DNA from: an uncultured Candidatus Altimarinota bacterium
Lineage (GTDB): Bacteria; Patescibacteriota; Gracilibacteria; BD1-5; UBA6164
NCBI GenBank assembly: GCA_913055215.1
Contig: CAJXJP010000001.1
Location: forward strand, 798 to 64,797
Direction: 5' to 3'
Length of the DNA: 64,000 nt
The position numbers were made by a program, and so were the translations under genes. Position 1 is the stretch's first letter; each line of letters begins with the position of its first letter. Below, piece after piece: positions 1 to 64,000 of the stretch. Below the pieces are notes generated by a model. That model saw only the letters and a list, made by a program, of their open reading frames with translations. It was not told where the DNA came from and did no database searches.

Positions 1-925
1 ACAATATAATTTTAAAGAATTAGTAAAAATATTTTTCTTAAGTGGTTTAGTTAGTTTATTCTTAGGTCTCATGATAAAATTTATTATGGATGAAGAATAT
101 TTAACCGTATTTTGATATAGTCACTATATTAGCAATTGGACATATAATTGATCAATTCCAAATTATCACTGACTAGAAAATTCATGAATTAGAAGGTTTC
201 AAGGATTATTAGAATGACCAAATGCAATGTGATATTTCCTTATTGTATTGTCAGCTTGTTTTCTCTATTTACAAAGAAAAAAGAATCAATATTACGTTTA
301 TTTATTTAGTTTTGCTTTTTTATATTTAGTACTGCTTACTTACTCTCGTTCAGCATTATTATGAATAATATCTGCTGGTGGACTACTTTTCCTACTGAAT
401 ATAAAATATATTTACAATCACTATAAAAAATACTTCCTGGCCGCTACTGTAGCGCTTATATGTTTTACATGAATTTTATGATTTGTATTTCAAGAAAAAA
501 TTTATAACGCAGTCATTCGTCCTTCATCTACTGCATGACATATTGAAAGAATGGCAATTTGAGTTGATAGGTTCTTAGAAAAGCCTCTTGGTTCATGATT
601 AGCAACATCTGGCCCAGCATATAGAAATGTTTATCCAGAGAAAAATACAAGAGAATTTGAAGAATACTATATTCCTGAAAGTTGGTTTGTTCAACAATTA
701 ACAGAGTGAGGAATAATATATTTTACGTTATTTTGTTTAATATTTTTACTCATTTTAATAAGGATTTATCCAAAATCTAAAGTTATGTTTGCTGCACTTA
801 TTGCTGTTTTAGTAATGAATGTATTCTTACATATTTTTGAATCTACTCACATGAGTTACGCCTTTTTCTTACTTTTATGAGTCTTATACGCAAGTGGAAA
901 AAAATGAAAAATTCTTTGAAAATAA
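1..925 (+). CDS. O-antigen ligase (Wzy_C/WaaL-like) family polytopic membrane protein, 3' part; the 5' end lies outside the window
   Basis: Frame 2 is open from the window edge to TAA 923-925 when TGA=Gly. The translation contains GPNAMGYFLIVL...TYSRSALLGI...PESWFVQQLTEGGIIYF plus several hydrophobic segments, typical of this family. A hairpin terminator follows. Confidence 0.6.
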
Positions 926-950
926 AAACTCGCAATTGCGAGTTTTTTTA
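924..950 (+). terminator. Rho-independent terminator hairpin (actcgca-at-tgcgagt followed by a T run)
   Basis: Palindrome 928-943 followed by TTTTTT. Confidence 0.7.
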
Positions 951-1024
951 TTGAAAATTATATTTTGTAAATGTTAGAATATAGATACAATAATTTTGTT
1001 TTTATACACTAACATACACTATTT

Positions 1025-3604
1025 ATGAGAATTTTAAGGAAGCTCATAGCAATCGCTATATTAGCAATTTTCTGTTTCAACATAACAGGAGTTTCAGCTG
1101 CAAGTACCGATATGCAACGTGCATCAAAAAATATAATTCTAACAAAAGTAGAATTAAAAAAGATTAGAAATGGCGATAAATATATCAAACAACTTGATCT
1201 TGTAACAAAAAAATTTGCAGGGAATGAAGAAAAATTAAGAGAGTTTTCAAAAAATATTAGTAATGCAAAATACAAACTTGCTTATAGTAAATCATGAAAA
1301 TCAAAAAGAATTTTAGCTATTCTTAACTATTTAGAAGCAAAAGTTAATTATGAGTTAAAAAAAATAGCCGCTCAAGCTGATGAAAAGCTTGAAAAAACTT
1401 TGGAAGAAGTAAAAAAACCAACAATTTCTTCTTCTGATAAGAAAAAAGTTGAAGCTGAAATTGTAAAAATTCAATCAAATTTATTTGAAAATTGAGTAAA
1501 AAACTTTTGAACACTTACAAAAGAATTTGAAAAATTAACAAATTATGAAAACAAAGGTGATATCAAAATGAACCTAAATATTGACCAAGAACAAATTTGA
1601 AAAGTAAAAGCTGAATTAAAACTCAACAATTATACTGCTAAAAACTCAAACTTTGATTCTCAATTAAAAGGACATTTATCAGCAATGTTAGATGCTGCTC
1701 CAAAAAATCAAGAAGCAGTAAAATTAGAATTTTCTAACTTTTTAGACTTCATTCAAAAAGATTGAAATATGTATATTCTTATGAATGATTTAAAAATTGT
1801 TTCAGAAGAAAATGTAGATAATCTAAAAGAAATGATTGAAACTGCTAAAAAAATTGCAGAAGAAAACGAGTATATAGAATTTTCTGATAAACAAACTCAA
1901 GAAGCAATGAGAATATTAGAATCTTTTGCTCCAGAAAAAATAATTGCAGATGGAAGAACATATTTTTCGAAACCTATGTTTACGGCATATAAAAAAGAAG
2001 AAAATAAATATTATTTAGTTCCTTCAAAATATGCTTGTGACACTATGAAAGAAGTAATGAATAAGTTTGATCCAATACATGGTAAAACATGTAGTACAAA
2101 TCAATATAACGATCTTGTAAGAGAAATGCTTGGTGCGGGAAATCTTACGCTTGAACTTTGAAATACAAATACATTAGCATTTTCAGTTGATACTGCAAGA
2201 CATACAGATATAGATAAATTAGATATCACTCTTAAATTTAATGATTCTTCTGTAGAAGCATTAAATATGATGGTATTACCAAATCAAAAACAATTAAAAG
2301 GTGAAAAGTTAACAATTGATTATACAAAAAATAATTCATTAAACGCTTATTTTTATGCAAATAAAGGAGCTATTAATTATTCTTTGAAATCTACACTAGA
2401 CAGAAATAATAAATTCTCAGAAGTTACATATACTTGAAATTCTGCAACAAGATACCAAGATATAATTTCTACATTTACTCTAAACAATGGTACTTTTGAT
2501 GGTAATTTTGATGTTTTAACAAAAAACTTTAACAAAGCTGCATCTAAATATAGAGAAGAATTTAAAGCACAACTAAACGGAAACCTTGATAATAAAAATG
2601 ATGTAAAAGATTTTACTTTCACATATTATCAAAATGACCTTCAAAAAAATAAGAAAGACTTAGAAGGGACAATTAGTTACAAAAATAAAACAGTAACCGT
2701 TAAAAATAAATATACAGGATACAAAACAAATGCGGACTTAAGCTTTGTTGGAAAATGGGATACATATAATAAAAACTTCAAAGATTTTGATTTTAATCTT
2801 AAAGTATCTGAAGATGAAAAATATGACCTAGTTGTATCTGATATTTCATTAAAAAATGGTAAAATATCTGGTCTAACTGTTGTTTCTAGTGAAAAACAAT
2901 ATTTAGTGAAAATCAAAACTGATGGTTCATACGAAAAAGATTCTATAACTTTAAAAAATGCTATAGATATTCAACCAGAAATTATGAAAGCACTTGATCC
3001 TGAAACTATGCAAGTCTCAGTAAGAGATAGTTCAAGATTTTGAGATTTATATGAAATTCAAGATGAAATAAAAGCATTTGCTGATGAAAACGACTGAGTG
3101 TTTCCAACATCAAAACAATTACAGGAAAAATCAGAATTCTTACCTCAAGATCCAAAAGGATGAAAAGAAATTAATGAATGTAAATTTGGTTATACATACC
3201 AAGTAAATAAAGATTTAAGTGTTTATAAATTAACGGCTTGTAGAGAAAAAGAAAGTTATGATGGAAAAATGAAAATGACTCTTGGAAACTTTAAGCAATA
3301 TAATCCAGTAACTTATAAATTTGAAGAAAAAGAAGTTACAGGAGAAGTTATATATATTCACAACTATAATAATTGGGAAAAAGTTTCAGAAGAATCAAAA
3401 TGATTAAAATCTGCAACAGCAAATTATAATATTTCAATTGATTCAAAATGAACAAAAGATAATTCAAATATCTATTTTGATTTCAAATTCAATGATAAAA
3501 CTATCGTAGATTTTGAACTAGATGTAAAATCAAATACAGAATATAAAGATGTTGAAATTGAAGCACCTAAATCTTCTAAATCATATGATGAAATTATAAA
3601 ATAA
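1025..3604 (+). CDS. Secreted hypothetical protein, 859 aa, with an N-terminal signal peptide
   Basis: ATG 1025. I checked every codon to TAA 3602-3604 and found no TAA/TAG, with several in-frame TGA. The ORF-track pieces 1025..1297 and 1769..2161 share this frame. The N-terminus MRILRKLIAIAILAIFCFNITGVSAAS looks like a Sec signal. I recognised no family. Confidence 0.8.
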
Positions 3605-3616
3605 TTCATTTCAAAT

Positions 3617-3646
3617 AAAAAACCAAAGCTTTGCTTTGGTTTTTTA
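3617..3646 (+). terminator. Rho-independent terminator (aaccaaagc/gctttggtt plus T run)
   Basis: Perfect 9-bp stem followed by TTTTT. Confidence 0.7.
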
Positions 3647-3707
3647 TTTGGCTTCTGAACTCTATTTCATATACTTATAATCAATATTTAAAAATTATCT
3701 ATATTTT

Positions 3708-4508
3708 ATGAGATATCTATTTCTGATACTTTTATTACTTATTCCGAATTATGCATTTGCCAGTGAAGAGCAAAGAATAATTTACTTACAGCATAATGCT
3801 TTAAGAAATGAAAAAATTCAAAATGGGAATTTTCGTATTTATTCAGATAAAGAACTAATAGAAGATGCTCAAAAATGGGCAAACTATTTAGCAAAAAATT
3901 ATAAAACAGAACATAAAAATATAGCCCCTCATAGCAATAGTTTTCAAACTCAATCTCATAGTTTATACAATGAAAATCAATGAGAAAATATAGCATGGTG
4001 AAAACCAAGCATGAGTCTAAATAGAGCTTTTATACTATGGGCTGAAGAAGAAAAAAATTATTATCCACAAGAAAATAAATGTCGTGGAGTTTGTGGACAT
4101 TATACACAAATTGTCCGGGAAAAATCAAAGTTTGTATGATGTGCTCAAGCTCAATCAAAGAATAATTATGGACAATGGGTTGTCTGTCGTTACTCACCAG
4201 CTGGAAATTATGTAAACAAAAAACCATACCAACATCAACAAAACTTTTCTAATCCATTATATGCAAAAATTATTCTCTCGATTGAAAATATAGAAAAACT
4301 TTCAAAAAAATGAAAGAAAATCAACAAACAATTGGAAAAATTATTTATCAAATTTGATAGCAATAAAGATAAAGAAAAGTTATTAAAGTACCAGGAAAAG
4401 ATTTCTCCTATTTATAATAAAATTATAAAAAAGAAAAAACTTTCAATAAATGATTATATAGTTATACAACTCTATTATAGAGTTCAGTTAGAACTGTATG
4501 GAAAATAA
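3708..4508 (+). CDS. Secreted CAP/SCP/PR-1-like domain protein, 266 aa
   Basis: Signal-like N-terminus MRYLFLILLLLIPNYAFA. The CAP hallmark GHYTQIV..., followed by VGCA and VVCRYSPAGN, appears once TGA is read through. Stop is TAA 4506-4508. Confidence 0.75.
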
Positions 4509-4534
4509 AAAAAGAGCCTACGGCTCTTTTTTTA
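4506..4534. terminator. Bidirectional terminator shared by convergent genes (agagcc-tac-ggctct flanked by A and T runs)
   Basis: Hairpin 4513-4527. The TAA stop of the giant minus-strand ORF (4532-4534) lies in its T/A tract. Confidence 0.7.
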
Positions 4535-7500
4535 TTGCATTATATATTCTCATTGGACTTTATACATAACCTCTGCTACTGTTTTTGCAAAATGTGCATC
4601 AACTAAACGCAGAATAATGTAATCTGATTCATGAGAGTATTCTAGCTTGTAGTTCCCATTGATAGTATCGATTCTCCCATCTTTGTAAATAATAAAGAGT
4701 GGTTCTTTATGTACATCACTGTTTCTATAAATAACCAGTGATCCTGGATTATAAGAAACAGTTTCTGGGATCAAATAATAATTATATGTCGATTTATCTA
4801 AGAATTTCACAAACAATCAATGTTTATCACCAAGTTCAAAATTTTCAACTAATTCAGTATGTGTAGTATTTCAAACTTTGATTTCTTGATTATAAACTGT
4901 TTGATTATTTTTTATAACATTAATCGATGGATAAACTCATTTATTTCTCACATCATTTGAAGAATAAGCTGATATTTTTACTCATACTTGTTTTGCTGTG
5001 ATTTTTCATGTAGTTTCATCAATTTCTGCAATAGTAGTACCATTTTGAGTTAATGTTAATCAAGAAGCTTCTTTTGAAATAGGGAAATTATATTCTCATT
5101 TTTCTGTTAAAGTTTCTTTCGTTTTATCAGCAGATTGTATAGGGGTAATAACTCCTCATCTTACTCTGAATAAACGAACCGGTTCTTTTTCTAAATCTTC
5201 ATTTATATAACCTGTAATTGTTTCATTATTCACTGTTTCGATTTCCGGAACTGGTGAATATACCTCAAAATTAATATCTTTTATTAGTGTATTTCCATTT
5301 GCATCAGTCATTCAAATAGAAATTTCTTTTTCAAATATTGAATCATATTCTCAGAACTCTGCTGTTATTTTTGCAAGAGTTCTTTGAATTGATACTTTTT
5401 CAACTGATTTATCATTTCTTGGATTTCCATCATTATTATCATCAACTTTTGGATCCATATCAATCCAAAAATCATGAATGTTTTTAATTCAACCATCTTC
5501 ATAAATAAATGGAGTGAAATCAAAAACTTGTTTTTGGTACACAGGGATTCTAATAACTTGTGCTAGTGATAATTCAGGAGAATTGTCATCTGCTACCACT
5601 TGAGGTGCCAGTAATGTTAATTTCGAAGAAGTTGAATATTTATTATTACGGAAAGCATAAGCTTTTGCATAATAGTAATCATTTTCTTGATTTACACGAA
5701 TTACATGGGATTCAGCAGTATATCCAAGATTGTATAATTCATATCTTTCAATATTGGTAAAATGAAGGTTTGCTTCAGATCCATCAAAATATTTTATATC
5801 AACATATGATTTTTCAGAAAGTCATTTTTTATCATTTTTAAACCAGATTTTTGTACCAAATCATAATGGTTTTCATAATAATAAACGTATTTCCTCTCCG
5901 TTATATGTCAATGTATTTGTATTTTGAATATATGCTGCATTATTCGCTCAAAGAACTTTAACAGTAGCATCAAATACGACATGAGAATATTTAGGAATAA
6001 GGACTTTGAATAATTCCTCTGATCCATCCATTCTATAATCTAAAGTAACCGATTGTTTTCATGCATAAACCGCAGTTCAAACTGAAATATTAACAACCGT
6101 ATTTTCTGATAGATTTTTTGTAATATTTGTTAAAGATGGTGTTTCAATCGTTAATCAATTTAATGTTCAAGCATTATTTATATATGCTAAATTAGAATAA
6201 AGAGAGTATCAATGTAGTTTTGAATCTAACAATGTATTTTCAGTATTACTAAATGCATCAATAATTGATTTTTTTGCATTTTTTGGACGATACGAATCAT
6301 TGTTTTGATTTTCAAACTTATCAATAATCGGATAATACTCAACTCTATAATTATTAATATCAGAATTTGTTGAAGCCTTAAATTTCATATTAATTGATCC
6401 GCTATCAATAGAGATTTCATTAAAATTATTTACTGCTGGAATAAACTCTCAACTAAAGAATTTATTATCGTCAGAACTAAATGTTAAAGTATTATAATCT
6501 TTTTTATTCGTTCTAATTACATCCAAATTTTCTTTAAAGTAAATTGCTCATTTTGACATATACAGTAAATCTTCATCTCCATCAGAATCCAAATCGATCA
6601 CTGTAGTTTGTTCATCTCCATCTACTTCTTCTAGATAATCAAACAATCTATAACTTGTATCATCTTCAACAACATAAAGTCCTTTATATGTATAACCATA
6701 ATCAGAATTATTTGATGCACTACAAGTGTTTGCAGAAGCTGGCTTTTTACCGGCTCATGACCATGTTCAAGTTTGTGCTGCTCTATATTTATCAATTGGA
6801 GAACTAACCGCTGCTAGTAATTCTGTTCCTTTTTCTTGAAGATCAGTTTTATACTCATCATCTCCAGCTTCAATTAAGTTATGTGCCGATTGGATAAATT
6901 TATCGTTATATTTCGACAATGCATCATTGTAAGCTGTAATACGTGATTCAGTTTTTGAAACAGGAATTGTATATTTTGGTTCGAGTAGTTTTTGAATATT
7001 TTTTGATTCTTCTTTCGTTCTTTGTAATTCAGTAGAAAGAATATTTTTTAAAGTTTCAAATTTTTCATAATTATTATTTTCTAGCTCTTTGATATATTTA
7101 TTTTCTTTTGAGTAGCTATAATTATCAACCTCATTCCATACATTTCTAAGTTTATCAAATTTAGGATCAGCAGCAAGCTTAGGTGACGCAAGATTATCAA
7201 AAACTGTTTGTTTAAATTCAGTATTTGAAACCGTTATATTTTTATTTTCTTCTAAATGGTTTAAGCCTTGTTCAATTCATGCTTTAGCAAAGATAACTAA
7301 TGCTAATACATTTTTCATTATATTTTCTTGAGAAATTTCAGTTTCAATATTTGATGAACCGTCAAGATTAACATCAATTTGAGTAGGAATAACTCTTGAG
7401 AAATCTAAATCAGAAACTTGGATATCTAATACACGAGTTGCATCATTAGAGAAACTATTAATTGGCATCGCAATTTGTTCAGCCAATTGGATAATAAAGT

Positions 7501-10500
7501 CTGTTTCAAATTCAAGATTTACATAACTTGTAACTTTAATTGCATCTACAAATGGATAACTAAATTGAGGTAGACTCAGATTTAAGAAATCAGTCGGAAG
7601 ATATCATTGTCTTTCCGTAATAAATGCAATTTGATCACCAGCTCTCCATTCAGGTACAAATGGACTTGTTTTCAATAGACACATTGCCTTTGTAATCAGT
7701 TTCAAAATATCCACTACTCACTCAAGTGAGGCAAATAATTTTGGAAGCGTTGGTGGTGGTGGTAAATTAGGAAGTTCAACTGTTGGTAAACTCGGTAGAT
7801 CAGGCAACTCTGGCAATTCAATTGTTGGTAAAATTGGAAGCGTTGGTAGATTTATATTTACCGTAGGGACATTTGGAAGAATTAGATCTGGTAGTAATGG
7901 TAAAATAATCGGACGACTTGCAAATTTGAATTCTGGTAATGCAATATCAAGTCATGCACGAATATTATGTAAATCCATAATAATATCAGGCCATTTTGGG
8001 AATAGAATAATTGGCATTTCTGGAATTACTGCTGAGATTAACTCCCATATAAATGCTTGTAAATCTCCACGTTCATTTTTACATTCATGACATTCAGCTT
8101 CATAGTCGATAAATATATCAACCATCAATTGCCATGATTTTAAAATCGCTTTAATTAATACATATAACTCAACCCATGCTTTAAATCTTTCTCCATTTTT
8201 TCCAATCCAACCTCATAATATTTCACCTATTGATTCAACATTACACATTACTTGTTCTATATATTTTTCTTTTGAATTTATAAGTGTATTAATGTCTTTT
8301 GGTAGATCTTTATATGATTGAATTACTTCAATATTTTGTTCTAATGAACGGATTAATCCTTCAGTTTGAAGAATTATTTTTTCTGATGCCGCATTTTTAT
8401 CTTCACAAGCTTTTTGATCTTCAGGTTTTGGTTCATTACACAATGCCCCAAATGACCATTCATTTTTTGCTCTTTCTAATTCTGCTTTCCGGCCATCTAA
8501 TGTTTCATTCCGGAGAATAATTGTTTTTTCAATTGTAGGTTCATCTACCCAAGGAAGATTTATATTAACTGATTCTTGAGAAATATTCACAAGTGGAATA
8601 TTTGATAAGAAAGCATACGCTTCTTTCATTCAAGAGTTTGCTGTATTAATTGCTCCTGTTCATACGAGTCAAGTAATATTTTTATCTACTTTTACTACAT
8701 CATCAACATCTTTTCATTCTGTTGTTCCTGTATCTAATATTCCAGAAAAATCAGGTAGGATAATATAGAGAGTTGGAAAATCAGTTAATTTTGTAACAAT
8801 TTCTTCAATTTGTCTTTCAACCCAATCAGACATAAGGAATGATGGGAAATCACTAATTTTTTGTTTTTGGATTTTAATAATATCTGCAAAATTTCATGCT
8901 TTAATAGAAGAGAAATCAACATTTACAGAAACTTCATCTCAAGTTCCTTGTCCATTCATATTAATCAATGGATTATTGAAGTTTTGAGTTGGAGTATTAT
9001 TTGGTTTCGCAACCTTTGTAAATGTATCTTTAAATTTGTCTTTTAAGTCAGATGAAACTTTTCAAGTTTTTTTGTAATCAAAATATTCTTTGACAAAATC
9101 AGGAGAGAGGTTTGATTGATTTTGTTTTGATGCTCAACTACAATTTCAATTATAAATCCCAAATCAACCCGCTGAAGTTTGAGCAAATCATGTTGAAGCA
9201 ATATCTCAATCTGATCCATCATCTTCACAACCAATCAAAGGCATAGCTGCAATAACACAGTTTCATCCTGGAACAAGTGGATGCATCCCTGGCATATTTG
9301 CATATCAAGCAACTATAGGTGGTCAACCAAAACATGCAGCCATCCCGACAGCTCATGTTAATGTCGGAGTAACAAAGATTCTAAATGTATTAGTTGGACT
9401 TATAGTTCCTAAATATCATCCAGCTCATAATGCTGCATTACATACTCATGTAAACATAAGAGGACTCATTGGCCATACAGTAGGAACTTGATAACATCAA
9501 ACTGGTGTTGGAACATTGATACCTGTTAATCAAGAAATTGTTGGAATTCATTCTCCAACCATTAATCAATCTCAAACTGGATATCCAAACAATGTAGGAT
9601 CTCAACCTGGAGCAAGAGGTGCCCAGTTCATTGGCGTTGCAATACATCACCCTCAACCAAATCAACATGATAAACCTTGCATGATAGTATCAACTCATTC
9701 TAATACCCCATTCACGTTTTCGCTCATTTTATCAAGATTTGAAGTCAGGCTTCATGCAAAATTACTATCATCATCTGAATCAGGTATTCCATCTCCATCT
9801 GAATCTTTATTCATTTTAGCTAATTGTTCTGATGCATATTTTTCCTTTTCAGCAGTTGAACCATTTACAAGTTTATCAATATAGTCTGGGACTCCATTGT
9901 TATTTTCATCTTGTTTATTTTGTTCTAAAACGTCAGGAAGTTTTAATTTATCAGAATCACATTGTGGATTTGTTATTTCTTTTTTATATGATCTTGTTCA
10001 AATAGATGCTAATATATCTGAAGCTTGTGAACAATTTTCTTTATTTCATTTAAATAGAACATCTCCATAGTTATCATCTCAAGCTGATCATTTTTCAAAT
10101 TTACCAACTTGAATATTTCAATACTTAATTGGATATGTTTTTAATTTATAGCTAAATGTTTTTGACTCATTTGGTTTTAGATCAAATCCATCAATTATAA
10201 AATTATATCCTGCTATATCAGTTGAAATATTTACTCATTCTTCTACTGTTAATGTTTGTCTATCAAATTCAAATATTTCTAATGATTCATCTGCATATGC
10301 AAATTTTTTCAATGTTTTATTTGATGTATTTTGAATTGTAACAGTAACATCTATATAATCGTCTGATTGTAATGGTTTCCCATTTGCATCATTGTAAACT
10401 TTTTTTACTTGAACTCATGCAATTTCACTATATTCACTACGAAGGAAACTTACTTGTTTTGTTTTTTTATAAGTAGCATTGATATCAATATTACTTTTAT

Positions 10501-13500
10501 TTTCTTCTAAGAATTTTTTTAGTGATTCTTGTGTTTGAGCCATAGAATCTCAAAGTTCCGGAGAATTTGGTAATTCTAATGTTTCTAATAATCAAGTAGC
10601 GCTGTTTTTAGCAACAATTTCAGTTCAATAAGGAAGAACAGTAAAAATAATACTATCTGCTAATTCATCGTTAATTCCTGCACTTTGAATGCTTACACTA
10701 CTTCATTCTCAAGTAGATCCATTTTGTTGACTACTAATATTGTTTTGTAAATTTGCGAGAGTATTTGCTAATTTACTTTTTTTATCTTTTTTAAAATCTT
10801 TTGAAGATTTAGAAACAATTCCTTCATAATAAACTGCTCATTTATCTGTTCTTGGTGCTGAATCCAGAGTAATAGCATAATCTTTTCAGATATTTAATTT
10901 TGTGAATTTTGGATTTTCTCATGTTCCTCATCCGTAGAAAACATTAATTTCTCAAGAATCATCTAAGATAACTACATCTTTAATTCCATCTGCATCCATA
11001 TCAAATACTTCAGACTGAACAACTTTTCCATTTAAATTAAATGCTTTTGTAAGATTAATACGATAAAAATCTTTTTCATTATTATTTAATAAAAATGGTT
11101 CTTTTTTATCATTAACAAAGAAAATATCATCATAACCATCTCATGTAAAATCTCATGCCTTTAATGTCTCAGGTGAAGATAGGTCTGCAACTTGTGCAAT
11201 ATATCATTTCCCTTGAACAAATTCTGAAGTTTCTGTATTTTCATAAAGACGAAGATAATCATCATTTTGTACGATCAGAATATCATCAAGATTATCGTTA
11301 TTGTAATCAAAAACTTGATACGATTCTATTTTATCATCATCTGATATTAAATTCCCAATAGTTGAATCAAATTTTCTATTTACTGATGTTTTTGGTAATT
11401 TTTTTCTTATTTTTTTCAGTGAAACAACAGGATCTCACAAGTTGATAACTGAGAAACTTTGATATTCTTTTACAGATTCTCAAACACTAGATCATGCTGA
11501 GAAATTTAATAATGTTTTATTTGCTTCTGACCATCAAAGTCCTCATTCTTTTACAGAGTTTTCATACGAAGATTGGTTCGATTTAGAAAATTCATTTAAA
11601 GTATAATCTGCAGCAAAAGGATCATTATAAAATATATTGATTTGATTTCCATTATTACTACTCAGTTCTCTTGAACTATAAGAGTTTGATGAAAGGTAAC
11701 CAATCACAGCATTTTTAAGAGTTTTTGATTTATTTTTGAATAAGGTATTATCACGAGAAATAGTAGAAATATAGTCTTTCATATTAAAGGCTAATTTTGC
11801 TACTATTTTTGTATCAACAATGATTTCAAAAATTGCATATTTATGACCAGAGTTAGAAACTGAAATATTTAAAATTCAGTTTTTGTCGATAGATCAATCT
11901 TTATTAATAGTAAGGATTATTTTTCAAAAACTATCTCTTAATACTAATTTATCTCATTCTTTGAATGTTTTGTATGAATCATTCACTGATTGTAAATATA
12001 TTCCTGAAGTTTTATCTTCATTAATACAAGCATTAAATGTTGATCAAGGACATAATTTCGTAATAACTTTATCATCAAAACGATACGTAAATTTACCTAC
12101 ATAACTATTAAGAGAGTCATTTTTATAATTTATATTTATAAAATTATCATCTATCTCAACATAAGAAACGATATCTTGTGATAAGTCTTCTGATGCACTC
12201 ACATTCTGAATAGAACCATTTTCCAATAGACTTAATACATCATTATAATTATATGGATTATTCAGTAGTGAAGTTACCGCTAATGCTCTATTATTTCTGT
12301 TAAATAATAAAGATCCCGCTAAATAATCTTTTTGTGAATAATCTCAATAGTTTGCTCATAATAATGTAGAATATAAAGCATTGTATTTTGTTTTATCAAT
12401 TGTTTTTTTATTCCAAAAGAAGAAAGTTTCTAATTTTCAGACATTTTCTCAAGCACCAGAAATAGTTACATCTTTTCCTCCATCTTTTATAATAAAATTA
12501 TTTCATGAAAGACTTGGTGAAGTAGAAATTTTAAAATATCCAACTCCTGGAGTATCCGTAACAGCAATTCACAATGTTGAAGTTCATCATTTTACCGTAG
12601 CGCTACTTTTAACTTCTCAAATAATTGATTTGTACTTTTGAAGTATTTCGATTTTAGTTTGTGTCGAATTATCATTAAATACAACATTTCCATATCTATC
12701 TTTTAATTCTGTTTTTACATAGTGAACATCTCAATCTTTTGCTTCTACTTTATCGCTACTCATTGACAAATCTACTTTTATAGCCTTATCTGGGTAAATA
12801 GTAATATTTCTTTTCGCAATTTTAGAAAGTCATTCTGCTTGAAATTCGACAGAAATATCTTTTCATGCAACCGTTCCAGTAAAGAATGAAACAATAGCTT
12901 CACCATTTTTTAATTCAAAATACGATTGTTTTGGATTTCAATATATATCACTTATCGTAAAATATATTCTCCCATTATAATCAGAAAGAATAGATCAAGT
13001 TTCTCCTCTTAATGAAACTTTAAATGAATATTCACCTCATCAAACTTTAAAGTTAGAACCTAAAGGTTGAGTCGATAGATTAATTTGTTTTAATACATTT
13101 AATTTTTTTGAAGATTTTAATAATTCTTTTCCAGAATTATCCTTAAGTATAAAATTGATATTTGCTACTCAAGTTTTAGCATTGGTTTTTAAACGGAAAA
13201 TTTTATATCATTCAAAAACACTTCCTGATAATTCTTGTGTATTATTTTCTTCAAATACAGTATCAGTTCAAGATATTTTAGCCTCTAATTCATAAAATTT
13301 TCAAACTACTGGATTTCAGAATCTGTCTAAAACAGTAGAGACATTTGAAGTAACTGCTCATCATAGTTCAGTTACTGTTGCTCACATATTTGTTACAATT
13401 TCTGATGGAGCCGCTGCTTCAATTACAAAATCTTTTTCAATTTTTTGTCCAGATTTGTCTACAATAGAGAGAGTATAATTTCATGATTCTTGATAATTTC

Positions 13501-16500
13501 AAAGAGATATGAAATTTGATATACTTTCTTTATTTATAACTATTGGTTCAGAAATATTTATATTATTTCTTTGTACTTGAATAGTAAGTGGATATCTGAT
13601 TTTTTGTTGTACTCAATTTTTATTAAAAGAATTCAATCAGAAAATCAATTTTTTATCAGCTTTAGAATCTTTAGAAATTTTTGGAATTATTTCATTTGAT
13701 TTTTGATTATAAGCATCGAAGAAATAAATATTTTTTTCTTCACTCGCTTCTATCATATTTTCAGATGATTGAATTTCGACATCTCACAATATATTTTCTG
13801 CAACATATGATGAAGCGAAAATTCTATCTGATCTAATTTCAATCTTTAAAGGTTCCGAATTAATTTTCTTAAATTCTTTATTATCTTTATCTTTTACAGA
13901 AATTGAAGCTGTAAAATAATAATTCGCTTCTTTCGCTTTTGATGAAAAACCAAAATTTGCTTGTCCTCAGGTAACTGGAATAATCGTATCATTGAAATCG
14001 ATATAAGGAAGTGATTGAGAATATTTATTATTCGTAACATCTCCTCTATCATAAATAGTTTTTACATTATCATTTGTAAATTCTTTTGTTGTATCTTTTA
14101 ATGTTTCAACTTTTTGTAATTTTAAATCTACTTTAGAAACATTGTCTAAACGAACTTGTACTCCCTTTTTATCAACTACTTTTGCTGTAAGTTTTCCAGA
14201 TTTTTGGAAATAGTAATTACTAGCATCGCTTGATAGAATAATTTTTCATCAATCGAATTTTTTCTCAATACAGTCATTTACACCATTTTTATTTACATCT
14301 CAGTTACATTGTTCGAACTCATCTCTCTCAACAGGAGAAAGAAGTGTAACTCAACATGTTCATTCAGAAATAGTAATTGCTGGTGGTAACATATCAGTTA
14401 GCCAACACATTATAGCTGGAATCCACTCAAAAATCATAACTCATTCAGGAGGAGCACATTTAAATGTTCCATTTTTTGATTTATTATTTTCTCTACTCAC
14501 ACTGACTCAAAGAAGAGCACTTGAAAGTTTTAGATTCTTAGAAATGATATCAGCATATGGATTTTCTGCTTTAGATTCTGGGTCAACTTTAACATACATG
14601 TTACTTGCATCACCAAATCAAGCTAAATATGCAATTTCATATAATTTTTTATTTTTTGGTAAATTAAAATTAAAATCATTATCAAATTGATCTGAAAGAT
14701 AATTTTCAAAAATAAATTTATATTTTGCAGAAACACTATTTAAGTTATTCCAGTGAACAGCAAAAGCTAATGTATCTAGATAATTTACATTTTTCTTATC
14801 TCAATAGTCATTTATTGTTCCGTTTGATTTTTTATCTTTCAACAATGAGTAAAGAGAAACTTTATCTCATGTGTTTGAGAGGGTTGTAGGATATGATCAA
14901 ATTTTTAGTAAATTATATAGTTCTTGATTTTTTCAAGATAATTTACTTGGATTATGATTTGTAATAAGAGTATTCATTTGAGTTGTCACTCAATCTAAAT
15001 GTTTTTTTAACTCTTCTTTAGATGAAGCAAAACTCAAATCATTTACATCAACAGTATTAACTCTAAATAAATTCGGATACTTGATTTTAGCATAGTCTCC
15101 ATCTGCAGCAATAAAGTCAATATATCTATCTTTGTTAACTGGCAGATCAGGAGTAATTAATGCTGAAACTTGTTCAGATAATTGTTCAGCAGTTGGTGCA
15201 TTATGAATTATATGAGAAGTAATTCACTTATAATTATAATTCACATTATGCCAGTTGTTATAGGCAGAAGATCCAGTGGTAGAATTTGCACTTCATGAAC
15301 ATTCATAATCTCAATCACGATCTCTACTATCAACATAAGAAGCTGAATCGATACTCACTCAATCCAAATTAATATTTTTTCTTGTACATCTTTCTACAGA
15401 AATATTTTTATAAACATCTTTTAATTTAGGAATACTTGGTCAAGATGTTGTGAGAGTGAGTGGATTCCAGTTATTATTATTTTTTGAATAGGCAATTCCG
15501 TTTACTGGAGCTGTATACCTAGTTTTACATTCATATTGTGGCCCGCTTCCGTTTGATCATCATCCCCAAGAAGTTCTTACTAATTCTTCTTTCGATGTTA
15601 ATAACATATTTGTATTATAACATTGAAGTGGTGATGGATTTAATAATGCATTTTTAGATTCAACTGATCCCGCAATATCAAAAAGTGGACGTATCGACTT
15701 TTTAGTATCGCTTGTTCATAGTTTAATTTTACCAGATGCTGCACTTGAATTATCTAGATTTAAAGCACTGTTACCTCACCAATATCATAAAGACATTTTA
15801 TGTGCATTTGCTCATGCTCATAATTGAACTTTTGTTGCAAGTTCTACATCTGATTTAACATTATGCACGTTGTGTCATCTATTCGCCTCTACAAGTTTTC
15901 ATCAATTTTCTGTAGATCATCTGTAAATCGTACATTCAGATGCATTAGTAATATCTTTTGTCTGTTGTCCAAATAGGAAATTTTCATAATCGCTTATACA
16001 ATCATTATATCAAGCTCCTCAACTTCTATATGTAGTTGGTATTGCTATTTTTCTAGCTAAACCTGACGTAACTATAGTATTAATATACGATTCTAAATCG
16101 TTATTTGTGTCTAATATAATTTTATCACTTACTAAATCAAGAGAAGTGATTAGATGAGGAATAAGGTCTACATTAACCTTAGATCCAGCCTGATTATATC
16201 TTCAAGCATTATGGACATTTCATCTAAACGTTCAGATAGAACCTTTAGAAAATATTTCAACAAATTTTTTAATTGAATTTTTTACAATGTGTCTTGTTTG
16301 AATATCAGGTGATATAGATACATCAGGTCCATTTGATAAAGCTGATACATCAATCCCTAAATTTACTTTATCTGCAATTTCTCAGATTTGTCTATTTTGA
16401 TCTCATAACATTTCAGATTGAAGAAGTGTTGCAAGAGCTTTTGTATATCTCTTATAGACAATGTCTTCTTTGAAATTTAAATAAGAACGGTATCAAATAT

Positions 16501-17242
16501 AATTATTAAAATTAATAGATTGAGATTCTCTAAATGCATCAAAATAAAAAACATATGGTTCATAGGTACTTGGAACAAAACTTCTTTTATCTCCATTTAT
16601 TACATTCGTTGAAAGTTTAAAGTTTCATGAACCCGTATAATACTCATGATTTTTTGCAAAATAATCTTTTAATGCTTGAATGTTGTTTTTTTCAGAACCT
16701 GTATTTGGTGAAATAACTCAATGCCAAATTTCAGGTTTGATTCATTCATTAGAATCTGAATTAACAATATATCTTCAAATTGTTTCATCAAAAATATAAG
16801 ATTTATTTTTAAAATCTGTATATGGTAAAATAGTTTTATCGCTTGATTCATTACCCGTAACTATTGGGGTTGGAATATCTCAAACTAGAACCGTCCCTAC
16901 AAGCCTTGAATCAATATTTGATTTCTTAAGCCCTTTAATTCCATCAAAATAAAGTGATTCATTGAGTGATGCAATCTGATACGACGTAGCATTACTTGGT
17001 GTTGGTAAAATAATAACTTGTGTATTATCAAGTACACTTCATATATCATCAGCATATTTTTCTACTTCTGAACGTATTTTTGAGTATACATTTTCATTCA
17101 CCAAAATAGAGACTATATCTCTATAGTCATTAGTTTTGGCATATAAGCTTGAATGAAATATTGGAACTCTAAAAGTAATAGAGAAAAATAATGAGAAAAT
17201 CACTAAAAATGATAAGAATTTTTGCGCTCTAGAGTAATTCAT
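4532..17242 (-). CDS. Giant secreted or surface multidomain protein, 4,236 aa (signal peptide, FG-GAP/VCBS-like repeats, Asp-rich Ca-binding-like motifs, Ig-like repeats, Gly/Pro/Cys module, LPxLP repeat)
   Basis: ATG at 17242. I inspected all codons down to TAA 4532-4534 and found no TAA or TAG. My hand count gives roughly 160 in-frame TGA. All sizeable minus-strand ORF-track pieces here (17039..17242, 12044..12226, 11543..11782, 8213..8629, 7277..7486, 4550..4816) are in this one frame. N-terminus: MNYSRAQKFLSFLVIFSLFFSITF...LYA. Confidence 0.85.
7742..7912 (-). repeat. Coding tandem LPxLP-type repeat inside the giant ORF
   Basis: Hand translation: PIILPLLPDLILPNVPTVNINLPTLPILPTIELPELPDLPSLPTVELPNLPPPPTLPKL. 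Confidence 0.85.
9121..9720 (-). other. TGA-dense Gly/Pro/Cys-rich hydrophobic module of the giant ORF
   Basis: About 23 in-frame TGA in 200 codons, against about 3-4% elsewhere in the ORF. Translation includes CGFGGGGCIATPMNWAPLAPGGDPTLFGYPVGDGLMVGEGIP...GVCNAALGAGGYLG...AACFGGPPIVAGYANMPGMHPLVPGGNCVIAAMPLIGCEDDGSDGD. Confidence 0.8.
10920..11340 (-). other. Three consecutive FG-GAP/VCBS-like repeats in the giant ORF
   Basis: Hand translation: VFDYNNDNLDDILIVQNDDYLRLYEN; AGDFTGDGYDDIFFVNDKK; VFDMDADGIKDVVILDDSGEINVFYGGG. Confidence 0.65.
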
Positions 17243-21763: not shown

Positions 21764-21911
21764 AGAAAATTCATTAAAAATTATTTTTGTATATATTAAG
21801 GATATAAATTTGAAAGTAAAGAATTTTGAAAATATTCACAAAAGCTCTTTGAAAAAAATGAAATAATGTTTATAATATATTTGATTACCAAAATAGTATT
21901 AATTTAAAGTT

Positions 21912-22379: not shown

Positions 22380-22380
22380 A

Positions 22381-22434
22381 AAAATTCAAATAAAAAAAAC
22401 AATCTCAATTGAGATTGTTTTTTTTATTTGAATT
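22381..22434. terminator. Bidirectional terminator: perfect 25-nt inverted arms around AATT
   Basis: aaattcaaataaaaaaaacaatctc-aatt-gagattgttttttttatttgaattt, between convergent def and secY. Confidence 0.75.
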
Positions 22435-23692: not shown

Positions 23693-23770
23693 AGAAGTTA
23701 ATATTATAAATTAATAATCGGATTATATTCAAAATAATAAAAAACCCAAACAAAAAGCTTGGGTAAATTA

Positions 23771-24226: not shown

Positions 24227-24253
24227 AAATTAAGTTTGTTAGTGTTTTAAATT

Positions 24254-24727: not shown

Positions 24728-24747
24728 ATCTTATAAGAATTATGTAA

Positions 24748-42202: not shown

Positions 42203-42204
42203 AA

Positions 42205-46538: not shown

Positions 46539-47096
46539 ATGTATAATGCGAGTGACTTAAAAGTTGGTAAAAAATTTATTATGGATAATGCTCCATACGA
46601 AGTAGTATCATACTCTCAAAAAGTAATGGGTAGAGGTGGTTCTATTATTAATATTAAAGCGAAAAATTTATTAACTGGTTCGAATGTTCCTAAAACATTT
46701 TCTGACCATGATAGATTTCCACCTGCTGATATTGCAACACATGAATATGATTACCTATATAATGACGGTACAAACTACTACTTTATGAACAATGCTACTT
46801 TCGAACAAGTAGAACTTCAAAGAGATGTATTAGGAGATGCTGAATTATTCTTACAAGATGGTGATAAAGTTCTTTTACAAGAATATAATGGTCAACCAAT
46901 TAATGTAAATCTAGAACCAAGTTGTATTCTAGAAGTAGAAGATACTCCACCTGGTGAAAAAGGTGATACTGCTACTGGATGAAAAAAACCAGCTACTATG
47001 GTTACTGGTTTAGTAATCCAAGTTCCTTTATTTATTAATATTGGTGATAAACTAATTATTGATACAAGAACAAAAGAATATAGATCAAGAGCATAA
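46539..47096 (+). CDS. efp: Elongation factor P
   Basis: GDTATGGKKPA, with the second Gly encoded by TGA at 46980-46982; the loop is VMGRGGS. Confidence 0.93.
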
Positions 47097-47990: not shown

Positions 47991-49475
47991 ATGTACTCGA
48001 AAAATAAATTATTTCTGTTTTTCTGAATTTCATTTTTATTTTGAATTTGACTGAACGCTCTGATACCAAATATTCAAAATTCACTTCAAGTACTCCTTAT
48101 TATCGGAGTACTTTTTTTTGCATACTATTTTTTCTTTCGTAAATATTTTTTATACTTATTTATTGCTCTTATTTGATGTTTTATTGGTGTGTTCCTTATT
48201 TATAGTCATATCTTGAAATTGAATCAAAATATGGCGAATTATGAGTATATTTTTAACAATAAACATCTCTTTGAATGAAATATTATAGATCTCTATAAAA
48301 AAAAGGAACATTCTCAAGAATTTATTTTAAAGGTTCAAAAAATTAATGAAAAAGTTATTTGAGATGATATTTACATTCTTATAGATATTCCAAATTTTTA
48401 TACAATTTGAAAATGATATAATATTAAGACTAATATAAAAACCTATACTTTTAAAAATTCTTCTCAATTTAAATATAAAGAATTTATGCTTTCAAAAAAA
48501 ATATATTGAAAAGCATATATAAATAATTTAGAAATATGAGAAATAGAAAGTCAGAATTATTTTTTAGAACAAATTTCAATATTTAGAACAAATGTGTTAG
48601 AAATAATCCATATTATCTATCCTAAAAATGAGGCACTATTTTTAGGAGGTATACTTCTTTGAGCTCGTGAAGAAATTCCGCAAAACTTAAAAAATGATTT
48701 TAATAAAAGCTGATTAACACATTTTATAGCAGTAAGTTGATTCAATATAACTATTTTAATCCTATTTGTGTGATTTTTATTTTGACGCTTACCAAAAGTT
48801 ATACAAATTATCGCTATTACGCTCAGTATAGTTTCTTTTACATTTTTAGTTGGTGCAAATATACCAGTTATTCGTGCTTCAATAATGTGACTTATTTGAT
48901 ACTATATTTTGCAATCATGACGTTCATGAGATTCACTCAGTTTAGTTGTCTTAACTGCTTGTATCCTTGTATTAATTAATCCCATGATTCTTGTGTATGA
49001 TATAAGTTTTCAACTGAGTTTTTTAGCGGTTTTATGAATACTATATACACAAAATTTCTTCAAAAGATTACTCTTTTTTGTACCTGATTTTTGATGAATA
49101 AAAGAAGCTTTAGTTTTAACACTTTGAGCACTTGTATTTACCTGTCCAATAATGGTAATGAATTTTTGAGTATTGTCTATTATAGCACCAATTGCTAATA
49201 TATGCGTTGCATGGACTATTCCATTAGCTATGTTATTAGGTTTTATTTCCATACTTGTCTACTATGTCTATCCAATGTGATGAATTGTGTTTTGATTTAT
49301 TCCTTGGTTATTATTAAAGTTTGATATTATAGCTGCACATTATTTTTGAAATTTAAAGTATGCGACTGTTGATATAGATTTTTGAAAATATACTTTTTTA
49401 GTATTTTTAAGTTATTTTACTTTTATTATTTTTTGTATTTTATTACAAACTGAAAAGAAAAAAGAAGAAACGTAG
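47991..49475 (+). CDS. comEC: ComEC/Rec2-like DNA internalisation channel, short form without a C-terminal metallo-beta-lactamase domain, 494 aa
   Basis: KSGLTHFIAVSGFNITIL and IRASIMG; polytopic. I checked every codon from 48720 to TAG 49473-49475. Confidence 0.8.
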
Positions 49476-55832: not shown

Positions 55833-57689
55833 ATGTGAAAAATTATTAAACTTGATCCTCAGTTGGCAAACCAAATTGCAGCTGGTGAGGTTGTTGAAAG
55901 ACCGGTCTCAGTTATTAAAGAATTAGTTGAGAATTCAGTTGATGCTGGTTCAACAGAAATAAGAATAGATATTGAAGAGTGAGGTATTCAAAAAATTGTA
56001 ATTACGGATAATGGTTGATGAATTTCGAAAGAAGATCTTCCTCTGGTTCCTGAAAAGTATGCCACTTCAAAAATAAGCTCTTTACAAGATTTATATAATG
56101 TTATGACTTTTGGTTTTCGTTGAGAAGCATTATCGTCAATTTCATCGGTATCTCAGTTTGAAATAATATCAAAAACGCCTGAAGAAAGCTTTTGAAATAG
56201 CTTAAAAATACATGATGGACAAGTTTGACAAATCGAAACTTATCCTGCTGAAACTGGTACAAAAATTATCATTGAAAATCTTTTTTATAATACTCCTGCA
56301 CGTTTAAATTATCTTAAAAAGCCAAGAACAGAATACAATCATATTCTTGATTTTCTCAATAATATGGCAATGAGTTATCCACATATTTGATTTCAATTTA
56401 ATAATGATGGAAAAAATATTTTTCATTATCAATCTGGAGAAACTTTAGAAACAAGATTATATTCTATATATGGTGACCAAATAAGCTCACAACTCATTCC
56501 TATAGATTTTTCACTCTATTGAATGAGAATTCATGGGATGATTTCTGATCCAAAAGTAAGTTTTTGAAATAAAAATAGACAAGTACTCTATGTAAATAAA
56601 AGAGTTATCAAGTCACCACTTATCATGAAAGCAATTTCTGATGCTTATAATCGTTTTATTCCTCATGGGATGCATCCAGTTTATATTTTACAAATTGAGG
56701 TAAATCCAACAGAAGTAGATGTAAATGTTCATCCAAGAAAAATGGAAGTTCGTTTTGCGAATGAATCTAGTTTATTTAAGGCTGTTCACTCTGCTATTTT
56801 TTCAAAGCTTGAATCGACAACTCTATTAAGTCATTCATGAGAAAATGGTCCAGAATGAGAAAAATCAGAATGAAGCGCTATAAATAATAATTTTTCTCAT
56901 AAAAATAATTTTCAATCAAGTTCTCAAAACTCAGCACCTCAATATTATACCGGTTCTGGGACAAAATTTAAATCGTATTCTCCATATAAAAATATAGAGT
57001 CTAATCCAGCTCAATGAAAAATAGGAGCTGCCTTAGATTTTTCAAAAGCAACATTAGATTCTGAACATATTCAAGAAAATAGTGGACCGGTCCATAATTC
57101 AAATGACCTACACTATACAAAAATGTGAAAAATCATCGGACAAATGCATAATTCTTATATTATTGTTGAAACAGAGTCATGAATGCAGATTCTTGACCAA
57201 CATGCTTTAGCTGAGAGAATTATTTATGAAAAACTCGTAAAATCACAATATACAGCGAAAGTACAAGGACTCTTAATTGGAGAATCTATACAATTACAAC
57301 CAAAAGAACTGGCTATCTTAGAAGAAAATAGACAAACTTTTGAAGAAATGTGATTTGATATAGAAATATTTCAAGCTGGAAGTTTGATAATAAATGGAAT
57401 TCCTGATTTTATAAAAAAAGAAAACCTTTCTCAAATTTTCACTGGAATTCTTGAAGATATTGGTTCACAAAGTAATAATAAATCTCAGACTCTCGAAGAA
57501 GTGAGAAATAAAATATTTGCCTACACAGCCTGTCGTAGTGCGATTAAGTTCGGAAATAAACTTAATCTCTTCGAAATGAATAGATTATTAAATGATGCCG
57601 TTATGGACTACTCTGCCACTTGTCCACACGGAAGACCCGTTATTTATGAAATGAACTTACAAGAGTTGCAAGATAAATATGAAAGATAA
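55833..57689 (+). CDS. mutL: DNA mismatch repair protein MutL
   Basis: Starts [62 protein letters not shown]; C-terminal CPHGRP. Confidence 0.93.
57083..57094. repeat. Palindrome TGGACCGGTCCA, copy 3, inside the mutL linker region
   Basis: Read directly; encodes S-G-P-V-H. Confidence 0.95.
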
Positions 57690-58135: not shown

Positions 58136-58209
58136 TGGTATCCCCAGCTGGGATCGAACCAACGTCTATCCCTTAGGAGGGGATTGTTCTTCCACTGAAC
58201 TATGAGGAC
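58136..58209 (-). tRNA. tRNA-Arg (anticodon CCU), CCA encoded
   Basis: The minus strand GTCCTCA TA GTTC AGTGGAA GAAC A ATCCC CTCCTAA GGGAT AGAC GTTGG TTCGATC CCAGC TGGGGAT A CCA folds into a 74-nt cloverleaf. Confidence 0.85.
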
Positions 58210-62312: not shown

Positions 62313-62314
62313 AG

Positions 62315-62551
62315 ATGACTGAAATACTACAAAACAAAACCATTGAAAATGTTGATTTTACTAATCAATCATTAGAACAAGCAGAAAAAAATATGTCTTT
62401 GCTTACTGAAAAATCAGTAAATACATTATCTGAAGCAAAAGAACAAGCTAAAGGATCAGTTAAATTTGCTGAAATTTGTTCTCAAAACTCAGAAAAATTT
62501 ACAAAAGCAACTTCAATTTTCGATAAATATCTATCAAACCCTACGGTTTAA
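62315..62551 (+). CDS. Hypothetical protein, 78 aa
   Basis: Intact ORF, tightly spaced with its neighbours. Confidence 0.45.
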   Translation: MTEILQNKTIENVDFTNQSLEQAEKNMSLLTEKSVNTLSEAKEQAKGSVKFAEICSQNSEKFTKATSIFDKYLSNPTV

Positions 62552-62574
62552 TTTAACTTATTCTTATTCCTTCG

Positions 62575-63957
62575 ATGAAAAAATTTAAAATTGCTGTAAC
62601 CAAAGACCAAAAAAAATATACTTTGGTTTTTCAAGCAGAAAATGAAATTCAAGCAAAACAGAGAGTTCACAAAGAGTGATACTCTGTTTTAAACATTGAA
62701 GAAATTTTTGAAGATGTTCAACTTGGTCATACATTCTACTTTTTGTGTAAAAATGGCGAAGAAATGAAGTCTGGGAGAGTTATGTGAGATGATATTTTTA
62801 AAGTGTATACAAAACTGAGAAAAGATTTTTGATATGAAGTTATGTCTTTATATTCAGAACAAGACAAAGAATCTTCAGCTGATAAAAAACATAAAATACT
62901 CAAAGATTTAGAAGCGGGTTTTGAGTTAATGGAAAGTTCAAACAAAGATAAAGAAGAAGAAAAACCAAAAGAAAATATTAGAAATGAAGTAAATGAAAAA
63001 TCTTTAGATGATTTTTATTTAAAAAAAGAATTAGATGAAAATTATAAATTAATTGATTTTGTTTTAGAAAAAATCAAAAATTTAATTGAAAACAATGAAA
63101 TTGAAGACTTAGATATTGATCAAAAAGAAAAATTAAAAAGAATTCATAACTCGATTGTGAAAATTAAAAAAACAACAAATATTGCTAAACTAAAAGAAGT
63201 TTGAGAATTAGCATTATTGAAAATTTGAATGATCGAATTGAGAGAACTTGAAAAAAGTAAATCAAAAGAATCGAAACAATTTTTAAAAGAAACAAATAAT
63301 CTTCTTCGTAAATTTGGCTCTAGTAAACAATTTATAGAAAAAGACAAAGATTTAAAACTCAAAGCGAATACATTTTTAGAAAAAGTTTTTGATCTTTTTG
63401 ATGAAATTCAATTGAAAAAAAATAAAAAACGTATCAAAGTTGATAAAACGTCACATGCGTATATTAAAAATCAATTATTACTGAAAAAATACGAAGACAG
63501 ACTTTCCTTAAATACAAAGTTATTATTTAAAAATATAATTCCAATTCTTCTGAGAAAACCAGAATGAGTTGATATTGTAATCAAACGTAGAGTTTTAGAA
63601 CAAAATATTTTATTACTCAGAGCAAAAGAAAGATGAGTAGGATATTCTTATACATCTGTTAAAAAATGATACAATAAATTTTTAGAAAAATTTGATAAAA
63701 AAGTTGCGGTATTACGTAGTTATGCCTTTGTTCTCATATTTTTATATATGATGATGTTCCTTCTTTTCTTGAATTATCAATATTATTTCAAAGCAGATGA
63801 TTTAGCGTATTTGAATTTTAATTATACAGGACTTTCATATTTTGTGCTTTTCTGTTTTGTCTATTTAGGCTTATTTTACAGAAAATCATTATTTTATATA
63901 TCTTTTATTTTTGGAATTTTATCATTTCTGATTATATTTGCGAGTATTAATTTCTAA
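62575..63957 (+). CDS. Hypothetical coiled-coil protein with C-terminal TM segments, 460 aa
   Basis: Three ORF-track pieces (62842, 63229, 63748) are in one frame, joined by TGA. The N-terminus MKKFKIAVTKDQKKYTLVFQAENEIQAKQRVHKEGYSVLNIEEI resembles the small N-terminal domain of GspF/PilC-type proteins. Confidence 0.6.
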
Positions 63958-63966
63958 GAAAATTCT

Positions 63967-64000
63967 ATGAGATTTTTACTTCTCTGAGTTTCATGGATTT
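63967..64000 (+). CDS. Start of a further CDS (MRFLLLGVSWI...), truncated by the window edge
   Basis: ATG 63967, open to the window end. Confidence 0.3.

Follow-up and report, generated by a model that had tools for sequence, protein, structure and literature searches.

Which amino acid, if any, does UGA specify in a 64,000-nucleotide stretch of DNA from an uncultured Candidatus Altimarinota bacterium (contig CAJXJP010000001.1, assembly GCA_913055215.1)? The question is not a minor one, because each gene call depends on the genetic code in this stretch, which as a whole is called the window here (GC content, 28%; coordinates counted from its first nucleotide): under the standard code (translation table 11), its genes are shattered. 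A preliminary description of the window, made from its letters, had proposed that UGA is a glycine codon throughout, i.e., translation table 25. Here, we describe that UGA is indeed a codon for glycine and that UAA and UAG are the terminators of the window genes, and we further describe a second codon, CGG, which would very probably be read as tryptophan instead of arginine.

Reading through TGA restores the genes of the window

When the whole window was searched under table 11, only four open reading frames (ORFs) with 200 or more amino acids were found, and just one of them reached 300 amino acids. With TGA taken as a sense codon, the corresponding numbers were 42 and 24, and one of the ORFs extended over more than 4200 codons; the fragmentation of almost every gene under the standard code, as previously noted, was thus evident. 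Removal of TAG instead of TGA from the stop codons brought no comparable gain (seven ORFs with 200 or more amino acids and one with 300 or more), and the gain upon removal of TAA instead of TGA was far smaller (16 and three ORFs, respectively).

We then assembled a gene set in a greedy manner from non-overlapping ORFs ending with TAA or TAG, which gave 58 genes on approximately 92% of the window DNA; three calls on the wrong strand (def, rplX, and rplN, described below) were mended before codons were counted. The corrected gene set contains 491 in-frame TGA codons spread over 45 of the 58 genes, and the reading frames run on across all of them without frameshift. In every gene with relatives, furthermore, the alignments to those relatives pass the last TGA and reach the C-terminus, and no case of TGA as a terminator was found among the window genes that have relatives. 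All real stops had been said to be TAA or TAG; indeed, the 58 genes are terminated with TAA (54 genes) and TAG (four genes). That the organism uses the standard code and that its TGA codons are true stops in pseudogenised sequence or artefacts of an error-ridden assembly would explain why table 11 fragments almost all genes, but this idea, with a practically nil probability, is refuted by the selective restoration of long ORFs, by the intact frames and normal C-termini just described, by the TGA sites being conserved or swapped with GGN in at least 70 independent genomes, and by near-identical sequences (conspecific contigs, 98.2–99.95% identical to the window) having been assembled independently from several marine metagenomes.

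UGA specifies glycine, not tryptophan

Restoration of the reading frames does not by itself distinguish glycine from tryptophan, since the ORFs are restored equally when TGA is read through as in code 4 (UGA as tryptophan). Code 4 occurs in Mycoplasmatales/Entomoplasmatales and in a number of insect endosymbionts; a low GC content is common to these organisms and the window and would agree with code 4. Also, a copy of the protein encoded at 3708–4508 is present in a public protein collection (P0001) with Trp at every TGA (e.g., NENQWENI where homologues have QGENI), meaning that code 4 was applied to the sequence by at least one pipeline. Proteins of this species with erroneous residues at hundreds of glycine sites already circulate in public protein collections, and table 4 would place Trp at 491 glycine positions in the window.

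We used the orthologue regions of Escherichia coli K-12 as a reference and aligned the window proteins with TGA masked as X, so that no amino acid was favored. In 32 genes, 117–120 TGA positions could be aligned, of which 68–71 (58%) faced Gly and 11–12 faced Ala; none faced Trp, which had also been said not to fit the TGA positions named earlier. For comparison, the GGT, GGA, and GGG codons of the window face Gly of E. coli in 68–75%, and TGG faces Trp in 16 of 28 positions (57%). In a likelihood test, for which substitution patterns were estimated from the other codons in these alignments, the profile of the TGA columns had a log-likelihood of −209 for Gly, −338 for Ser as the runner-up, and −373 for Trp; namely, Gly was ahead of every other amino acid by at least 129 log units and Trp stood 163 units below Gly.

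These statistics are mirrored in individual proteins. Eight TGA codons had been named by coordinate in the preliminary description, and all of them were found in frame and in the protein context given there, with seven of the eight facing Gly in E. coli: the Walker A glycine of RuvB (GPPGL-G-KTT; 21545–21547, minus strand), RHQGG-G-H of ribosomal protein L2 (30786–30788, minus), CS-G-DLG of seryl-tRNA synthetase (17664–17666, minus; C(S/T)GD in the alignment), DRG-G-F of L18 (24814–24816, minus; (G/S)GF), the GG(D/E)EF active-site motif of a 643-amino-acid diguanylate cyclase (33124–33126, minus; Gly in E. coli DgcE), GDTATG-G-KKPA of EF-P (46980–46982, plus), and the second codon of rpsC (M-G-HKVNP; 29347–29349, minus), where S3 of E. 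coli begins with MGQKVHP. The eighth, the second codon of mutL (55836–55838, plus), is confirmed as TGA and lies outside the region alignable to E. coli; both genes said to open with ATG-TGA thus do so, the comparison with E. coli being available for rpsC only. Three further motifs reported to carry TGA at glycine were seen directly in the translations, with TGA at the expected Gly: ALxTDTGxSIRQPA of GatA, the P-loop AGxTASxKTS of uridine kinase, and motif 3 of PheS, FGMxIDR.

Relatives of the window were collected as the best 80 SecY loci (L018–L097) when GTDB was scanned with a single genome for each species. Almost all of these loci are labeled as Candidatus Gracilibacteria or as Patescibacteria/“Peribacteria” metagenome-assembled genomes; the SecY identity (best tblastn segment) is 58–82% for the approximately 70 best loci, with the closest at approximately 80%. 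SecY proteins of Peregrinibacteria and Peribacterales are 44–51% identical to that of the window, and none of the best 80 loci belongs to Absconditabacteria. Among the complete genomes, the best match is Ca. Gracilibacteria bacterium 28_42_T64, a closed genome with 28.9% GC that is annotated with code 25 (PMC6851277).

With TGA masked as before, codons were compared between the window and these relatives in approximately 1300 pairs of orthologous genes. Window TGA codons (n = 2535) were found opposite TGA in 1190, GGN in 989, and TGG in three cases, and window GGN codons face TGA of the relatives in 24–30%. The TGG codons of the window (n = 1181) face TGG in 1036 and TGA in 10 cases. Conversely, 89% of the TGA codons in the relatives are opposite glycine codons (GGN or TGA) of the window. 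Eight Peregrinibacteria/Peribacterales loci have no in-frame TGA and hence represent the standard code; at 119 positions of window TGA, they have Gly (80), Ala (14), and Ser (10) but no Trp. Tabulation of the residues facing TGA in orthologues, which had been proposed as a check, gave a majority of Gly and no Trp both for E. coli and for these eight loci. At the level of strains, 525 codon differences were counted among the conspecific contigs; seven of them involve TGA, and five of these seven are exchanges between GGA and TGA. Contigs of ERZ23497501 (LOPE16-1), ERZ908412 (SRR3646320), and JGI 3300030393 match the window with 99.9% identity.

Given the alignments to E. coli, the codon exchanges in relatives, the single-nucleotide differences between strains, the alignments running past the last TGA, and the SecY relatives, it is established that UGA is glycine in the window, as was proposed, that code 4 is excluded, and that the organism is a gracilibacterium. 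The alignments alone refute code 4, to which we would assign well under one chance in a hundred: besides the complete lack of Trp opposite TGA, exchange between TGA and TGG is a rarity compared with approximately 40% between TGA and GGN, the Trp content would reach an implausible 3.0% of residues instead of the 0.5% given by TGG alone, and the relatives are Gracilibacteria, not Mollicutes. The Gly content is 6.7% of residues when TGA is counted and 4.2% when it is not.

Two observations nonetheless speak against glycine. Approximately 40% of the aligned TGA positions face a non-Gly residue of E. coli; such a share is, however, expected from the behavior of true GGN codons, 25–32% of which face non-Gly residues, plus a modest excess because TGA is enriched in less conserved genes. 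The other is that ARAGORN found no tRNA with the anticodon UCA in the sequences searched, namely the window, 12 conspecific contigs, and the loci of the 80 relatives.

Decoding of UGA and termination

UGA is, then, a sense codon for glycine, with UAA and UAG as the only signals for termination. From the literature on the clade, its decoder would be a glyT-like tRNA-Gly with the anticodon UCA, as described for this group (PMC8629427); such a tRNA should carry the identity elements for glycine (G1:C72, C2:G71, G3:C70, and U73). Termination at UGA would have been abolished by the loss of release factor 2 (RF2, encoded by prfB), leaving release factor 1 (RF1) for UAA and UAG. Neither in 28_42_T64 nor in the other BD1-5 genomes was any prfB detected, with prfA being present, and Hanke et al. 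(2014) are credited with the proteomic validation of UGA as glycine in a BD1-5 bacterium (both according to PMC6851277).

The sole tRNA gene of the window is that of tRNA-Arg(CCU) (58136–58209, minus), which is not a decoder of UGA, and an Rfam scan of the window returned nothing else. We extended the window with conspecific contigs by approximately 6.3 kb on the left (L104/L105, 1–7218) and approximately 8.5 kb on the right (L098–L100); no tRNA was found in either extension, and neither prfA nor prfB is present in the 64-kb window or in the two extensions, which cover the local region only. Contigs from metagenomes were also scanned with a pattern for tRNA-Gly(UCA). This gave 120 stretches, most of them chance matches or copies of a tRNA that recurs on large low-GC contigs of unknown origin; a convincing glyT-like tRNA(UCA) was found on two low-GC contigs that use TGA as sense, L169 and L223, but nothing ties either of them to the genome of the window. 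As a separate observation, L223 (12 kb) and another contig, L183 (14 kb), are phage-like and low in GC, and their long ORFs need TGA as sense; in L223, TGA-rich genes (up to 29 TGA in 492 codons) lie beside genes without TGA. These two contigs may be phages of hosts with code 25.

CGG is probably a codon for tryptophan

Table 25 changes UGA and keeps CGG as arginine. CGG is extremely rare in the window, with five codons (0.26 per 1000 codons) as compared with four CGA and 514 AGA; among codons for arginine, AGA is thus approximately 100 times more common than CGG. AGG, CGU, and AGA behave as arginine. The informative CGG codons, in contrast, appear to be placed where tryptophan is expected, and the conserved columns in which they fall suggest with good confidence that CGG is Trp rather than Arg in this organism.

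The clearest site is in the secreted CAP-domain protein (3708–4508, plus), in which CGG at 4116–4118 (plus, residue 137) occupies the position of the invariant Trp in the CAP/SCP signature GHYTQIV-W-xxS and is best read as Trp. A scan of metagenomes with this CAP protein gave no matches. This residue is Trp in four of the four CAP proteins shown from the PDB and in nine of the nine homologues from databases. A relative with 62% identity (L106; CAP gene at 3205–4005) has TGG at this site, and the reverse is seen at residue 97, where L106 has CGG and both the window (TGG) and a third relative have Trp; namely, CGG and TGG are swapped reciprocally. The second site is residue 69 of peptide deformylase (def, 21912–22379; CGG at 22116–22118, plus). 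Among 24 relatives, this column is CGG in 20 (L020, L025, L026, L030, L031, L035, L040, L041, L043, L049–L051, L053, L064, L067, L068, L073, L083, L087, and L092) and TGG in four and is never AGA, CGT, or AAA. The CGG is accordingly kept in 21 genomes including the window, whose peptide deformylases are 50–70% identical and whose synonymous divergence is saturated. The other three CGG codons are uninformative: residues 2911 and 2918 of a giant protein (8512–8514 and 8491–8493, minus) and residue 136 of an ABC-2 membrane protein (39882–40643; CGG at 40287–40289, plus). The two extensions of the window contained no further informative CGG.

In the TGA-rich, low-GC relatives, furthermore, every CGG in recognizable conserved genes sits in a Trp or aromatic column, and none was found in an Arg column of such genes. 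The columns are in SecY (TGG in 49 others), S3 (TGG in 58), a LepA-like protein, def, and one unnamed ORF. This column analysis uses only the longest non-overlapping ORFs; its first, all-against-all version was discarded, since antisense ORFs mimic the exchange between CGG and TGG: read on the opposite strand, a synonymous proline change between CCG and CCA has this same form.

An alternative is that table 25 is complete as it is: CGG would be arginine, and CGG at the Trp sites would be mere W-to-R substitutions, for which a single transition (TGG to CGG) suffices. The number of CGG codons in the window is indeed small and three of the five are uninformative, an Arg is found close to the def site in E. 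coli, CGA acts as Arg where it is informative, and CGG stands in Arg columns of six relatives (L018, L019, L032, L033, L036, and L052). Substitution by Arg would, however, hardly be expected at a structural Trp that is invariant in all CAP homologues examined, and it leaves the reciprocal swaps at two Trp columns of one protein between two relatives, as well as the def column with TGG as its sole alternative to CGG, without an account. L018 and L019, in which CGG is demonstrably in Arg columns, have TGG at the def column, and no Arg column with CGG occurs in the conserved genes of the TGA-rich relatives. We hence regard the complete table 25 as unlikely, at about the level of one chance in seven.

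Several points still count against tryptophan. Informative CGG codons are limited to two of the five present in the window, and the Arg of E. coli near the def site has to be mentioned again, albeit in a variable loop. Higher-GC Gracilibacteria with heavy use of CGA place CGG in Arg columns; the reassignment would therefore depend on the lineage and is inferred for the species of the window. No tRNA with the anticodon CCG was found in the window, in the approximately 6–9-kb flanks from conspecific contigs, or in the loci of the 80 relatives. Finally, CGG is kept over the far more common TGG at the def site, where neutral synonyms would predict the dominance of TGG; one possibility is that CGG in def is not a neutral synonym of UGG but a slow-decoding or tRNA-sensing site.

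With tryptophan as the preferred meaning, a tRNA(CCG) of Trp identity would presumably read CGG. Table 25 plus CGG to Trp is then most likely the real code, and plain table 25 is probably not exact. Reassignment of CGA to Trp was also considered but is not supported, CGA being Arg where informative. Taken jointly, it is likely, though somewhat less so than tryptophan for CGG on its own, that the window follows a code beyond every listed translation table (UGA as Gly and CGG as Trp, with CGA still Arg) and that the CGG of def is under its own selection.

Comparison with known codes

Table 25 was described by Campbell et al. (2013) and Rinke et al. (2013), and Hanke et al. (2014) validated it by proteomics (all cited after PMC6851277 and PMC8629427). 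The window shares with this code of SR1/Gracilibacteria the reading of UGA as Gly, UAA and UAG as the sole stops, and UGG as Trp, and it shares with the organisms using it low GC, membership in the Candidate Phyla Radiation (CPR), and Gracilibacteria as the closest relatives. UGA as glycine is not a new finding here but the code 25 already known, and the diagnosis was correct; the earlier view that it is diagnostic of the lineage is sustained by the relatives, which are Gracilibacteria, and by the literature (PMC6851277 and PMC8629427). The probable reading of CGG as Trp departs from table 25, in which all the other codons are standard. Codetta has predicted that CGA and CGG are Trp in Absconditabacteria and that CGG is Trp in some Gracilibacteria (Shulgina & Eddy, PMC8629427). 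The window resembles this prediction in that CGG is very rare, is placed at conserved Trp columns, and appears to depend on the lineage within Gracilibacteria, but it differs from Absconditabacteria in that CGA, also predicted as Trp there, shows no sign of Trp in Gracilibacteria of the window type. The layer of CGG as Trp has thus been predicted computationally before but is unvalidated, and the window would add clean supporting sites.

Code 4 of Mollicutes and insect endosymbionts is similar in that the UGA stop was captured as sense in a small, AT-rich genome, and its mechanism is thought to involve the loss of RF2. The captured amino acid is nonetheless Trp in code 4 and Gly in the window. 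The published picture of Gracilibacteria, i.e., low GC, a marine habitat, large surface proteins, and pilins, agrees with the window. We are nearly certain of the combined description, in which the window derives from an uncultured marine Candidatus Gracilibacteria (BD1-5, CPR/Patescibacteria) using the SR1/Gracilibacteria code, where UGA is Gly and termination is restricted to UAA and UAG, with the machinery proposed above and CGG as a likely Trp codon. In practical terms, table 25 is right for UGA and probably mistranslates CGG, including the invariant Trp of the secreted CAP-domain protein, and the effect is small (five codons).

UGA is avoided in highly expressed genes

TGA is the most used glycine codon of the window, accounting for 37.5% of all Gly codons. 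Ribosomal proteins, SecY, EF-G, and EF-P, however, use it for only 28 of their 350 Gly codons (8.0%), as compared with 463 of 958 (48.3%) for all the other genes (Fisher p = 8e-47). At one extreme, none of the 57 Gly codons is TGA in fusA (EF-G; 42487–44631, plus; 714 codons); at the other, TGA makes up 29 of 35 Gly codons (83%) in a comEC-like gene (47991–49475), and it makes up 72% in RuvB. The density is 6.8 TGA per 1000 codons in the ribosomal-protein (S10/spc) cluster from rplC to secY (22424–32536, minus) pooled with EF-G, EF-P, and L19. Selection thus acts against UGA in the genes with the highest expression, where the demand for translation peaks. The window is a well-resolved case of codon reassignment in CPR bacteria: a captured stop codon can become the most common codon of its amino acid and yet stay avoided in highly expressed genes.

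Across the Gracilibacteria-type relatives (L018–L097), the density of TGA in the same conserved genes ranges from approximately 0.6 to approximately 70 per 1000 codons, so that the usage of UGA in the same genes differs approximately 100-fold between related lineages. Five loci with 58–60% identity (L057, L060, L062, L069, and L075) have almost no TGA in conserved genes, and the few present align with TGA of the window; the Peregrinibacteria outgroup loci have no in-frame TGA in conserved genes. Upon this first reassignment, the second and unvalidated one (CGG as Trp) would be layered in only part of the clade.

Gene calls, gene order, and neighboring genes

In the course of gene calling, we noticed that antisense ORFs can outgrow the true genes when TGA is sense, which is a trap for calling by the longest ORF. 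An antisense ORF at 27302–27799 (plus) lies opposite rplN and rplX, and another at 21899–22408 (minus) lies opposite def; the corrected calls are rplX at 27014–27364 (minus), rplN at 27385–27753 (minus), and def at the plus-strand coordinates given above. Antisense ORFs of the window even score significant “homology” to the antisense strand of E. coli genes. In the ORF of ruvB (20753–21898, minus), the homology begins approximately 50 codons before the first ATG, in a stretch that itself contains no ATG; the start of RuvB is probably GTG at 21763–21765. The gene prmC was found at 40643–41500.

The order of genes around the ribosomal cluster is unusual (21614–34656). Upstream of rplC, rpsJ is absent and its place is taken by the gene of the GGDEF diguanylate cyclase (32725–34656); secY is followed by the divergent def and then by ruvB, instead of adk/map/infA/rpmJ. 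No ORF for rpmD (L30) is present in the 27-nucleotide gap between rpsE (24254–24727) and rplO (23771–24226). The loss of L30 is a general trait of CPR bacteria, and the window shares with them this missing rpmD in the spc operon.

The giant protein mentioned above is encoded by an ORF of 4236 codons (4532–17242, minus) that is intact only with TGA as sense, 163 TGA codons constituting 55% of its Gly codons. Only a faint FG-GAP match was found in this protein, which is conserved in the conspecific contigs, and its gene adjoins those of the secreted CAP-domain protein, an 859-amino-acid protein with a signal peptide, and a Wzy_C ligase. The giant protein is probably located at the cell surface. 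The first gene of the window (71–925) is the 3′ part of a gene for a 428-amino-acid Wzy_C protein that is cut by the window start. In the left extension, this is accompanied by genes for a GT1 glycosyltransferase, RNase J, and three tandem proteins resembling type IV secretion system (T4SS) pilins, and the right extension contains those for PepA (M17), a phosphoribosyltransferase, UvrA, MurB, and a pseudouridine synthase.

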